Shown: in pieces, positions 36,552 to 64,000 of the stretch
How the letters are laid out: each line of letters begins with the position of its first letter
How positions within the stretch are numbered: position 1 is the stretch's first letter
Assembly: GCF_988243305.1 (NCBI RefSeq)
Contig: NZ_OZ547136.1
Strand: one strand, 5' to 3'
DNA length: 64,000 nt
Notes under the pieces: model-generated
The model's input: the letters and a program-made list of their open reading frames with translations, nothing else
Database searches by the model: none
Told to the model about the DNA's origin: nothing
Translations under genes and position numbers: made by a program

Positions 36552-36621
36552 ATGCTGAATCTTTACGCATTTCTCAAACTCTGAAATCACTGTATACTTT
36601 ACCAGTGTTGAGAGGTGAGCA

Positions 36622-37677
36622 ATGCGTAAAATCATTCATGTGGATATGGACTGCTTTTTCGCCGCAGTGGAGATGCGCGACAATCCCGCCCTGCGCGATA
36701 TCCCTATTGCTATTGGCGGCAGCCGCGAACGTCGGGGGGTGATCAGCACCGCCAATTATCCCGCGCGTAAATTTGGCGTACGTAGCGCTATGCCTACTGG
36801 GATGGCGCTCAAATTATGCCCACATCTCACCTTGCTTCCGGGGCGCTTTGACGCTTACAAAGAAGCCTCAAATCATATCCGTGAAATCTTCTCGCGCTAC
36901 ACCTCGCGCATTGAACCGTTGTCACTGGATGAGGCCTATCTCGATGTCACTGATAGCGTCCATTGCCACGGTTCTGCGACCCTCATCGCCCAGGAAATCC
37001 GCCAGACAATCTTCAACGAGCTGCAACTGACGGCGTCTGCGGGCGTGGCACCAGTAAAGTTTCTCGCTAAAATCGCCTCCGACATGAATAAACCCAACGG
37101 CCAGTTTGTGATTACGCCGGCAGAAGTTCCGGCATTTCTGCAAACCTTACCGCTGGCAAAAATTCCCGGCGTCGGCAAAGTCTCGGCGGCAAAACTGGAA
37201 GCGATGGGGCTGCGGACCTGCGGTGATGTGCAAAAGTGTGATCTGGTGACTCTGCTCAAACGTTTTGGCAAATTTGGCCGCATTTTGTGGGAGCGTAGTC
37301 AGGGGATTGACGAGCGCGACGTTAACAGCGAACGGTTACGAAAATCCGTCGGCGTGGAACGCACGATGGCGGAAGATATTCATCACTGGTCTGAATGTGA
37401 AGCGATTATCGAGCGGCTGTATCCGGAACTTGAACGCCGTCTGGCAAAGGTGAAACCTGATTTACTGATTGCTCGCCAGGGGGTGAAATTAAAGTTCGAC
37501 GATTTTCAGCAAACCACTCAGGAGCACGTCTGGCCGCGGCTGAATAAAGCTGACTTAATTGCCACCGCGCGTAAAACCTGGGATGAACGTCGCGGCGGGC
37601 GCGGTGTGCGGCTGGTGGGGCTGCATGTGACGTTGCTTGACCCGCAAATGGAAAGACAACTGGTGCTGGGATTATGA
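36622..37677 (+). CDS. dinB: DNA polymerase IV DinB
   Basis: 351 aa; [26 protein letters not shown]... Y-family polymerase. Confidence 0.9.
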
Positions 37678-37728: not shown

Positions 37729-38022
37729 ATGCATCGAATTCTCGCTGAAAAATCGGTCAATATCACTGAGTTACGTAAAAACCCAGCTAAATACTTTATT
37801 GATCAACCGGTTGCGGTTCTTTCTAATAATCGCCCCGCAGGATATCTCTTAAGTGCCAGCGCATTCGAAGCGTTAATGGACATGCTTGCAGAACAAGAGG
37901 AGAAAAAACTGGTGAAGGCGCGCTTCCGTCCGAGTGCCGCAAGATTAGAGGAAATTACACGCCGCGCTGAACAATATCTTAATGATATGACGGATGATGA
38001 TTTCAATGACTTTAAGGAATAA
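37729..38022 (+). CDS. yafN: Antitoxin YafN
   Basis: 97 aa; matches YafN as recalled; immediately upstream of yafO. Confidence 0.85.
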   Translation: MHRILAEKSVNITELRKNPAKYFIDQPVAVLSNNRPAGYLLSASAFEALMDMLAEQEEKKLVKARFRPSAARLEEITRRAEQYLNDMTDDDFNDFKE

Positions 38023-38024
38023 GG

Positions 38025-38423
38025 ATGCGGGTATTCAAAACAAAACTTATTCGCCTGCAACTTACAGCAGAGGAACTTGATGCGTTAACGGCGGATTTTA
38101 TTTCCTATAAGCGTGACGGTATTTTGCCAGATATATTTGGTCGCGATGCACTCTACGACGACTCGTTTACCTGGCCATTAATCAAATTTGAGCGAGTTGC
38201 TCATATTCATCTGGCAAATGTGAATAATCCATTTCCGCCACAGTTGCGCCAATTCAGCAGAACGAATGACGAAGCGCATTTGGTATATTGTCAGGGGGCG
38301 TTTGATGAGCAAGCATGGTTGCTCATTGCCATTCTGAAGCCTGAACCTCATAAACTGGCTCGAGATAACAACCAAATGCATAAAATTGGAAAAATGGCAG
38401 AAGCGTTTCGCATGCGTTTTTGA
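38025..38423 (+). CDS. yafO: Toxin YafO
   Basis: 132 aa; matches YafO as recalled; starts 3 nt after the yafN stop. Confidence 0.85.
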   Translation: MRVFKTKLIRLQLTAEELDALTADFISYKRDGILPDIFGRDALYDDSFTWPLIKFERVAHIHLANVNNPFPPQLRQFSRTNDEAHLVYCQGAFDEQAWLLIAILKPEPHKLARDNNQMHKIGKMAEAFRMRF

Positions 38424-38432
38424 ATTTATATT

Positions 38433-38846
38433 ATGAATAACATACAAATAAGAGATTATCAGCCTGGCGATTTTCAGCAACTATGCGCTATTTTCATTAG
38501 AGCGGTTACGATGACCGCCAGTCAGCATTATTCACCACAACAAATTGCCGCCTGGGCGCAGATTGACGAATCTCGCTGGAAGGAGAAACTCGCGAAATCA
38601 CAAGTGCGGGTTGCAGTCATTAATGCAAAACTGGTCGGCTTTATTACCTGCGTTGAACACTATATCGATATGTTATTTGTTGACCCTGAATACACCCGCC
38701 GTGGGGTTGCCAGCGCTTTGTTAAAACCTTTGATTAAGTCTGAATCCGAACTTACAGTGGACGCCAGCATAACCGCAAAACCCTTTTTTGAACGTTATGG
38801 TTTTCAGACAGTTAAGCAGCAGCGCGTTGAATGCAGGGGAGCGTGA
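38433..38846 (+). CDS. yafP: GNAT-family acetyltransferase YafP, apparently truncated by 13 codons
   Basis: 137-aa ORF ends at TGA (38844-38846); the next 12 in-frame sense codons (FTNFYMRYKPQH) then TAA would restore a 150-aa protein. Confidence 0.8.
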   Translation: MNNIQIRDYQPGDFQQLCAIFIRAVTMTASQHYSPQQIAAWAQIDESRWKEKLAKSQVRVAVINAKLVGFITCVEHYIDMLFVDPEYTRRGVASALLKPLIKSESELTVDASITAKPFFERYGFQTVKQQRVECRGA

Positions 38847-39129
38847 TTTACTAATTTTTATATGCGATATAAACCGCAACATTAAATTCAGCTTGCAATG
38901 AAAATAACACCCGCCTGGTATGTGCGCGTTTTCTTATTCCACAAACTGCAAGGAGGTAAATCATGACAAATCCTTTATCAATGACTCTTTGCAGACCTTT
39001 CCAGGATTAATTCTTTTTTCTTGCCCTGGATTCGTCTGCCATTTCCTGATTTTTATATTTATATACTCTAAATAATTCGAGTCGCAGTACATGCAACTTG
39101 AAGTATGACGAGTATAAATGGAATGATAC

Positions 39130-39684
39130 ATGGGCAAATATATTCGTCCCTTATCCGATGCGGTATTTACCATCGCATCTGATGACCTGTGGATCGAGAG
39201 TTTAGCGATTCAACAATTACACACCACGGCAAATTTACCCAACATGCAGCGCGTAGTAGGGATGCCAGATTTACACCCCGGACGCGGCTACCCGATTGGC
39301 GCAGCGTTATTCTCTGTTGGTCGTTTTTACCCGGCAAGACGTCGCGGTAACGGTGCTGGAAACAGAAACGGGCCGCTACTCTGACACGCTGCGTTCGGCG
39401 CTGATTTCTCTGGATGGCGATAACGCATGGGCATTAAGCGAAAGTTGGTGCGGCACTATTCAGTGGATTTGTCCGAGTCCGTATCGGCCTCATCATGGGC
39501 GCAAAAACTTGTTTCTGGGCATGCTAACAAGCGGCTGGCGCGATTGCTGATTGCCTGGAAGCTGGAACAACAGCAACAGGAAAATAGCGCGGTGCTGAAA
39601 TCGCGGCGGCGAATGTTCCATCACCAGATTGAACGTGGCAACCCGAGACGGACATTTACAGGGATGGCTTTTATCGAAGGATAA
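39130..39684 (+). pseudogene. ykfJ'/prfH' remnant: RtcB N-terminal fragment followed by fragmented release-factor-H homologue
   Basis: Three short overlapping ORFs in different frames: RtcB-like N-terminus (...[25 protein letters not shown]) and PrfH-like pieces (...[48 protein letters not shown]). Confidence 0.5.
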
Positions 39685-39740
39685 TGAAGGATGAAACTGC
39701 CGGAAGGCGATTAAACGCCATCCGGCAGCAAATCAAATAA

Positions 39741-47576: not shown

Positions 47577-47652
47577 GCCGATATAGCTCAGTTGGTAGAG
47601 CAGCGCATTCGTAATGCGAAGGTCGTAGGTTCGACTCCTATTATCGGCACCA
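47577..47652 (+). tRNA. thrW: tRNA-Thr (anticodon CGU)
   Basis: 76-nt sequence GCCGATATAGCTCAGTTGGTAGAGCAGCGCATTCGTAATGCGAAGGTCGTAGGTTCGACTCCTATTATCGGCACCA with D-loop, CGT anticodon in ATTCGTAAT loop, T-loop GGTTCGACTCC and encoded CCA. Confidence 0.9.
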
Positions 47653-62231: not shown

Positions 62232-64000
62232 TCTCTTCTCCTGTCTGCGTCACCGCCGCCCACGATGAGAGGCCGCTGCAGACCACATCACCGACCCAGA
62301 CGGCACCGCGCGCCTGGTTGAGTTCCAGTGCCACTTCGCAGGTTTTATTGCCACTGTAGCGAAAATCGATAGTGGGGTATTTCTTATCTACGTCCATGAC
62401 AAACTCGCCGTTTTCATCGGTTCGGGTTCGGCCGATATGGTTGTTAATCCGTGCGTTAGCCAGCAGTGTGCCGTCTTCCGCACGGATACGACCGGAGACG
62501 GTAACCATCTGCTTCACCTCTGGCTCAATGACAGCGACATTGCCTGGATAGAGAGTCAGATGGCTTTTGCGACCGCTGACGATATCGTAACTGTCGAGTG
62601 AGTTTTTGCTGTTCTGCAACTCCACCTCATATCTTCCATAGGGAGAGAGCGGGAGATAGTTACGCTTGCCGTTAAGCGTGAAAATCCGCCCGTTGATTTT
62701 GGCGCTGATCTGACCATCGTTCTCCAGGCCAGTGTCGAATATCACCCCAGCGTTGCCATCGGTCCGCCCGCTGGCAGCGATGTTTTTACCCTGCCAGCCG
62801 ACGCTGCCGTTGGCGGTCAAATTGGTATTGATGTAGCCGTCCGCCGCGCTATTAACGTTCAGCGTTCCGCTGGCGTAACGAGCGTCGAACTGTGCATACG
62901 CCCCACCGCTGAGGGTTTTGTCATCACCGGTATCGCCGGAGATGGCTCGTGACAGATTGGCACCAACAGTGCGAATGGTCCCTTCATCAAACTGCTTGCG
63001 TGCTGACAGGTTTGCCATGGTGTAGCCGTTTTGATGAGTCATCCCTGCGCTAAACCAGTTGCCCAGTGGTAGCGAGAGATCGAGAGCGATATATTTCCCT
63101 GTATTGGCGTTGCTGTCGCCGTTGTTATAGCGCTGAATACCGGCCCGCAGGCCAAGCGAACCAAAGGTACCGCTGTAGACATTTTGATAGTAATCTGCCG
63201 TGTAATAATGGCTGTTGTAACGGCGGTCATCATTGTAGCTGATGCTGAATGTGCCCAGCTTCGACCACAGTGAGTTCAGGTTGAGTGTGCCGCCGATAGC
63301 ACGGTTGTCGGCATCGCTACGTCGCAATTGATTGCCAATGCGGGTTTTTTCCTGGTTAACCCACAGCGAACTAAAGCCTCCCGGTAGAGTGGCGCTGATG
63401 CTGCCGATGCTGCTCCATGAGCTGTCACTGGCCAGCATATTTTGCAGGTTAACGTTGATCGCCCCCCCAAGCGGCAGCGTCAGACGGGTTTCACCCACCG
63501 CCTGATTATCGTATCCATATCCCGTTGCCGCCCAGCTAAACGTACTCAGTGAGCCGGAGGTCGAGGCACCTGCCAGCCAACTCTCTTTAGCTGGTCGCGT
63601 CTTTTTCCCGTTTTCCGACCAGCGATCCATATGAAAGCTACCGCCCCATATCTGCCACGCCAGTGGTGCACCGACGCCGCGCCCCCGGCTAAACAGCTTA
63701 TTGACCCGTTGAGTGCGTTTGCTGATCACGCGACCGTTAACGATGACCTCAACTTCCACATCGTAAATACCGTACGGTAGACCCCGGGTATCCACTTCAT
63801 GATTGCCCATGGTGAAGTTCTGAACGCTTAGTAGCCGCCCATCACGGGTGAGATGTACTTCGCCCGCCGCCGGTAAAAAGGCGATCACTGGCGTGGCTGA
63901 ATGGCTGCTGTCGAAGATGGTGGAGCTGGCCTGGTTTCCCCAGGAAAGGCCGTAAATCTTCCCTGCTGAAATGGCGGTCATCGGCCCTAAGGACTGCAAG
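62221..64000 (-). CDS. ecpC: E. coli common pilus usher EcpC (partial; 5' end beyond window)
   Basis: 592 codons of an open frame running to the window edge; C-terminal portion of an outer-membrane usher. Confidence 0.8.

Follow-up and report, generated by a model that had tools for sequence, protein, structure and literature searches.

The yafP gene of the window, i.e. of the whole 64,000-nt stretch of DNA analysed here, is very likely a rare W138* nonsense allele in which loss of the C-terminal tail probably inactivates YafP, and which probably represents ordinary, near-neutral decay. Its product is a GNAT-family N-acetyltransferase of 137 aa which, according to the translation of the open reading frame, has lost its last 13 residues.

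A premature opal stop in yafP

The features of the locus on which the analysis is based are the following.

36590..36605, + strand: LexA (SOS) box CTGTATACTTTACCAG upstream of dinB, found by pattern match; the operon promoter region is intact
36622..37677, + strand: dinB (DNA polymerase IV), 351 aa, intact open reading frame, 1 aa difference from both reference loci
37729..38022, + strand: yafN antitoxin, 97 aa, intact
38025..38423, + strand: yafO toxin, 132 aa, intact
38433..38846, + strand: truncated yafP coding sequence, ATG start, 137 codons plus TGA (open reading frame list and translation)
38784..38789, + strand: T6 homopolymer in yafP, intact in the window, sequence CCCTTTTTTGA
38844..38846, + strand: premature opal stop TGA at codon 138 (reference Trp, TGG), from alignment and 55-mer probes
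38847..38885, + strand: orphaned yafP 3' end, 12 sense codons FTNFYMRYKPQH plus the ancestral TAA (38883-38885)

The start codon of yafP is the same as in K-12. Directly 3' of the TGA, the same frame continues through twelve sense codons (TTT ACT AAT TTT TAT ATG CGA TAT AAA CCG CAA CAT), reading FTNFYMRYKPQH. This stretch corresponds to YafP residues 139-150, F139, N141 and M144 among them, takes in most of the last β-strand and is now untranslated. For the ancestral frame the codons add up to 137 + 1 + 12 = 150. An initial annotation made from the sequence alone had described this arrangement of a TGA, 12 in-frame sense codons and a TAA, and its coordinates and codon count were exactly right. 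It had also given a length of 150 aa for YafP, which is correct according to the RefSeq annotation (453-nt CDS).

By itself, the open run does not count as evidence, since at the local base composition 12 open codons would follow a stop by chance with P ~0.45. The open frame past the TGA is meaningful because it is homologous to the 3' end of K-12-type yafP. Over the 39 nt after the TGA the identity is 39/39, through the ancestral TAA. Thus, it is homology that carries the case.

Ancestral state and orthology

In a three-way alignment, codon 138 is TGG both in the close relative strain 7/2 and in a K-12-type genome, and both of these carry an annotated YafP of 150 aa. The published 3' primer for CFT073 yafP reads 'cgtggtttactaa', i.e. 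again TGG at codon 138 (PMC3105422). With TGG in both references and in the CFT073 primer, the lesion is therefore a G to A transition at 38846, giving W138*, and the A at this position is the derived base. The initial annotation had deduced a TGG-to-TGA change that removes 13 C-terminal residues (137 aa versus 150 aa in the references) and had proposed to check it by alignment with K-12 yafP. The change and the loss are both confirmed by this alignment, and the reference orthologues run on to 150 aa rather than ending at the same position as the window product.

Compared with YafP of E. coli K-12/CFT073 (b0234; putative GNAT N-acetyltransferase), the window shares the locus, the operon order, the LexA box and the Pfam families, the latter as tested on the restored 150-aa sequence. 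It differs in having TGA instead of TGG at codon 138, 137 aa instead of 150 aa, and in missing the last β-strand. Orthology extends over the full gene, with 96% DNA identity to K-12, and yafP occupies the last position in a LexA-regulated operon. The sense codon in relatives, the stop one base away from it and the homologous, in-frame sequence downstream are what a nonsense allele should display. In length, the product falls short of the ~150 aa of a complete YafP, as it stops at residue 137 while orthologues have 146-159 aa. Therefore, the locus is best called a truncated, probably non-functional or pseudogenised allele.

When the 453-nt yafP stretch was searched against 5,426 complete E. coli genomes, it matched annotated yafP in 5,404 of them, with identities of 93-99.6%. 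The matching gene is named 'GNAT family N-acetyltransferase' (453-nt CDS, 150 aa), and in 5,363 genomes the match to annotated yafP covered at least 80% of the query. A 100% identical copy of the 453-nt stretch was found in none of the 5,426 complete genomes. In the literature yafP is described as conserved in nearly all strains (PMC3105422).

Rarity of the TGA allele

The distribution of the stop was determined using 55-nt queries centred on position 38846, which is thereby contained in each of their 28-mer seeds. The version with the derived A gave 0 matches among the 5,426 complete E. coli genomes, while the version with G matched 3,760 of them. Given this control, the empty A search cannot be put down to low-complexity masking. 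At the protein level, in a collection of 15 billion proteins, the exact 137-aa YafP occurs on ~10 public contigs and its exact 150-aa parent, with W138 restored, on at least 1,000. The 137-aa protein has several separate NCBI accessions (e.g. EMV8881835.1, HAV7550263.1), and public records name it 'GNAT family N-acetyltransferase'. The product is already in the databases as an ordinary GNAT acetyltransferase, and there is nothing mechanistically new about it.

The TGA allele itself was found in assembly GCA_052135155.1, which matches the window at 100% identity across 6,414 nt. This assembly may be the source of the window and is therefore weak as independent confirmation of the A at 38846. 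The contig look-up placed five more contigs, which share its neighbouring proteins, in one group with it. A metagenome contig (ENA ERZ15184995 NODE_41024, 86-1548) was rejected as a carrier of the stop, as it simply runs out after codon 137 and its match to the 137-aa product is coincidental. Its yafP has 3 differences from the window allele in 411 nt, and it carries a two-gene operon in which dinB overlaps yafP, without yafN and yafO. This is the ATGA-overlap deletion form of the operon (dinB-yafP) described by Gutierrez et al. 2011 (PMC3105422). Altogether, the W138* allele is derived, rare and recent, and its carrier lineage is one under-sampled E. coli lineage.

Other truncations of yafP

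Several other lesions of the same gene could be identified. In the case of GCA_038037045.1 (one locus) and GCA_043396565.1 (two loci), yafP ends in TAG at codon 138. The 137-aa product is identical to that of the window; the mutation and the haplotype are different, the locus being 98.4-98.7% identical to that of the window. The TGG to TAG change at codon 138 thus arose independently of the TGA in the window. Like the TGA, the TAG allele is absent from the 5,426 complete E. coli genomes. That two different stops were found at this one codon is a selection effect, because the look-up used the exact 137-aa product, and a mutational hot spot at codon 138 is not inferred. Few codons besides TGG can be turned into a stop by two different transitions.

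A different lesion is found in GCA_051631045.1 (yafP at 1423-1782) and GCA_051630675.1 (637-996), where the T6 homopolymer has become T7 (CCCTTTTTTTGA in these assemblies, CCCTTTTTTGA in the window). The resulting frameshift leads from ...KPFF into a TGA directly after F119, so that 31 C-terminal residues are lost, as opposed to 13 in the window. The corresponding product, called from Met27, has 93 aa and is present on at least 24 contigs. An extra T in this run truncates yafP independently of any change at codon 138. It may be a genuine, recurrent frameshift, or some of the T7 alleles may be homopolymer sequencing errors. Finally, an E. coli GNAT family N-acetyltransferase record of 152 aa has normal termini on both sides and is unrelated to YafP over residues ~43-90. 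This suggests a pair of compensating frameshifts, i.e. another damaged yafP allele.

The lost tail in the GNAT fold

To describe the missing segment at the residue level, 29 orthologues from Escherichia, Citrobacter, Yokenella and Kluyvera were aligned (146-159 aa, down to 54% identity). Within the lost tail, F139 is conserved in at least 90% of these sequences, and N141 and M144 are invariant in all 29. Trp138, the residue turned into a stop, is kept in the Escherichia/Citrobacter group only.

On the restored 150-aa sequence, Pfam gave matches to Acetyltransf_10 (E = 1.6e-19), Acetyltransf_7 (E = 2.5e-10) and Acetyltransf_1 (E = 1.1e-7). The Acetyltransf_10 match reaches residue 143, while those to Acetyltransf_1 and Acetyltransf_7 end at 124-125. 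Precomputed matches to the same three families (Acetyltransf_1, _10, _7) are attached to the 137-aa product too. An AlphaFold2 model of the restored protein has a mean pLDDT of 93 and a pTM of 0.86, with predicted strands at residues 5-8, 57-63, 66-74, 77-83, 107-112, 124-134 and 137-146. The order of elements in this full-length model, b1-a1-a2-b2-b3-b4-a3-b5-a4-b6(-b7), is that of a canonical GNAT. A Foldseek search with the model returned GNAT structures as all of its top matches, 2fiw among them with a TM score of 0.94 and an rmsd of 1.5 Å.

PDB 2fiw, a GCN5-related N-acetyltransferase of Rhodopseudomonas palustris, is the closest solved structure, with 31% identity to YafP and a sequence alignment over YafP residues 5-144 (E-value 5e-16). 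In this alignment, 'GEWLANTTM' lies opposite 'GAWFTNFYM' of YafP, so that a C-terminal strand motif G-x-W-[FL]-x-N-x-x-M is common to 2fiw and full-length YafP. Unlike YafP, 2fiw comes from another organism, lies outside any dinB operon and is untruncated.

The strand absent from the window product is b7 (137-146), the last one of the GNAT fold. The stop spares strands b1-b6, helices a3 and a4, and the putative acetyl-CoA-binding segment R89-R90-G91-V92-A93. GNATs have a P-loop motif (Q/R)-x-x-G-x-(G/A) after b4 (PMC4964394). In YafP the corresponding segment reads T88-R89-R90-G91-V92-A93, with G91 and A93 invariant in the 29 orthologues and the first position being T or another residue, not Q/R. 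Where GNATs have a seventh strand, it sits between b5 and b6, inside the sheet, and some members of the family have six strands only (PMC4964394). By analogy, b7 of YafP would also be placed between b5 and b6, a position taken from knowledge of the family rather than from measured coordinates. Since the tail contains conserved residues as well as the final β-strand, the 137-aa YafP would probably be misfolded, unstable or inactive, making this a null or strongly hypomorphic allele.

Operon context and expected phenotype

The gene order lafU-dinB-yafN-yafO-yafP is collinear with the annotated loci of strain 7/2 and of the K-12 derivative. DinB, YafN and YafO have their full length and differ from the references by 0-2 substitutions, and no internal stop was found in the window dinB on comparison with both reference loci. 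The dinB-yafN-yafO-yafP operon is SOS-regulated (PMC3105422). Since no gene of the operon follows yafP, and dinB, yafN and yafO are intact, the stop is not expected to have a polar effect. On the same grounds, the idea that the allele compensates for a dinB defect was rejected.

According to Gutierrez et al. [quoted passage not shown] Its authors infer that YafP takes part in metabolising nitroaromatic compounds. Overexpression of YafP inhibits growth (PMC6199490). From these published data on yafP loss, a mild phenotype is therefore predicted for the W138* allele, in which YafP would no longer act as an antimutator against nitroaromatic compounds and no general cost would arise. The allele is thus probably near-neutral.

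Alternative explanations

Four other readings of the locus were weighed against this one. The stop might be a sequencing or assembly error, with the A at 38846 being wrong and the strain having TGG and a normal 150-aa YafP. The failure of the A probe in all 5,426 complete genomes would fit with this, as would the fact that the sole proven TGA record shows 100% identity to the window and may be one and the same assembly. However, a substitution outside any homopolymer is atypical as an error for either short- or long-read consensus sequences. Furthermore, five more contigs were grouped with that record, the 137-aa protein is deposited under several NCBI accessions, and the equivalent, independent TAG change in other assemblies shows that such alleles occur naturally, so that an error is very improbable. 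That the TGA is recoded, by programmed read-through or as selenocysteine, so that full-length YafP is made on purpose, has next to no probability and was rejected. The frame is open for exactly the ancestral 12 codons, and UGA is read through more readily than the other stop codons of E. coli; its misreading by the near-cognate tRNA-Trp would restore the wild-type Trp residue of YafP. Nevertheless, every orthologue has a sense codon at 138, never TGA, and the W138* allele is very rare. No stable hairpin was detected in the 67 nt from the TGA onward (MFE -5.9 kcal/mol, z = -0.43 versus shuffled sequences), and therefore this stretch has no SECIS-like element. That the frame is still open follows from the mutation being recent, with the tail still fully identical to K-12.

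The remaining two readings accept the stop as real. The 137-aa YafP could still be a functional acetyltransferase for which the 13 C-terminal residues are dispensable. In favour of this, strands b1-b6 are kept together with helices a3 and a4 and the putative cofactor-binding loop, the part of the GNAT core that is shared most widely (Acetyltransf_1 and Acetyltransf_7) is retained, six-stranded GNATs exist (PMC4964394), and Trp138 itself is not conserved beyond Escherichia and Citrobacter. On the other hand, the tail is present in every full-length orthologue, with F139, N141 and M144 conserved across genera. It also forms a 10-residue strand, modelled with high confidence, which coincides with the solved homologue 2fiw on superposition. 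Where a GNAT possesses b7, this strand is internal, and removing an internal strand would normally destabilise the sheet; retained function is consequently regarded as unlikely. An equally unlikely reading is adaptive loss, in which YafP is costly, its SOS-induced activity being a net burden, and its inactivation has been selected repeatedly and independently in some lineages or niches. Were this true, W138* would be one case of convergent, selected inactivation of yafP and not of neutral decay. Three different lesions on different haplotypes (TGA at 138, TAG at 138 and the T6 to T7 frameshift), the lower fitness caused by YafP when PolIV is absent (PMC3105422) and the growth inhibition on overexpression (PMC6199490) point in this direction. 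However, the known cost of YafP does not apply in the window because dinB is intact here, and each of the truncating lesions is rare compared to intact yafP alleles. In addition, the pair of stops at codon 138 reflects the look-up and the two transition routes from TGG, the T7 alleles may partly be homopolymer errors, and yafP is conserved in nearly all strains (PMC3105422).

Near-neutral decay of a W138* allele thus remains the preferred explanation. On this reading, a single G to A transition in the last position of the Trp138 codon created the opal stop, and translation of yafP ends 13 residues early. Loss of b7 together with F139, N141 and M144 would then leave a YafP that is misfolded, unstable or inactive. 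A trace of full-length wild-type YafP could still be produced via natural misreading of UGA by tRNA-Trp, and the rest of the dinB operon would be unaffected. The practical value of the observation lies in correct annotation, i.e. flagging the locus as truncated and probably non-functional rather than as an intact 137-aa acetyltransferase. In addition, W138* might be used as a natural experiment on whether this small GNAT needs its C-terminal strand. It neither opens nor resolves any long-standing question.

Surroundings of the locus

The first part of the window (1-25000) contains a type VI secretion cluster (tssM, tssH, tssF, tssC, tssA, vgrG) and is 100.0% identical to E. coli NY1601, an isolate from chicken faeces in China. 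Over positions 26000-50999, the best complete genome reaches ~98% identity. The drop suggests a boundary at around 25-26 kb, due to recombination or mosaicism, in a lineage with few representatives in the set of complete genomes. NY1601 also has an intact Flag-2 lateral-flagella cluster in the interval from yafL to the dinB side, of which the window has an flhA remnant and lafU only. As a relative that could show the ancestral state of yafP, NY1601 was of no help, as its haplotype differs from ~26 kb on.

Downstream of yafP, remnants of rtcB and prfH lie at ~39130-39700, followed by pepD. The rtcB remnant includes an open reading frame for an N-terminal fragment of 84 aa (39130..39384). In strains 7/2 and UID2309220033, both collinear with the window, rtcB and prfH are annotated as pseudogenes. 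Relative to the K-12-type locus, offsets in the BLAST alignments indicate that the window is without ~73 nt in the yafP-rtcB spacer and ~170 nt within prfH. Further along, a tRNA-Thr(CGT) gene is located at 47577-47652. In the close relative UID2309220033, an integrase fragment comes after this gene, together with partial genes, so that the site is probably the decayed remainder of an integration. Still further downstream, towards position 64000, the paoC and ecpC/ecpD regions are 98.8% identical to the best complete genome.
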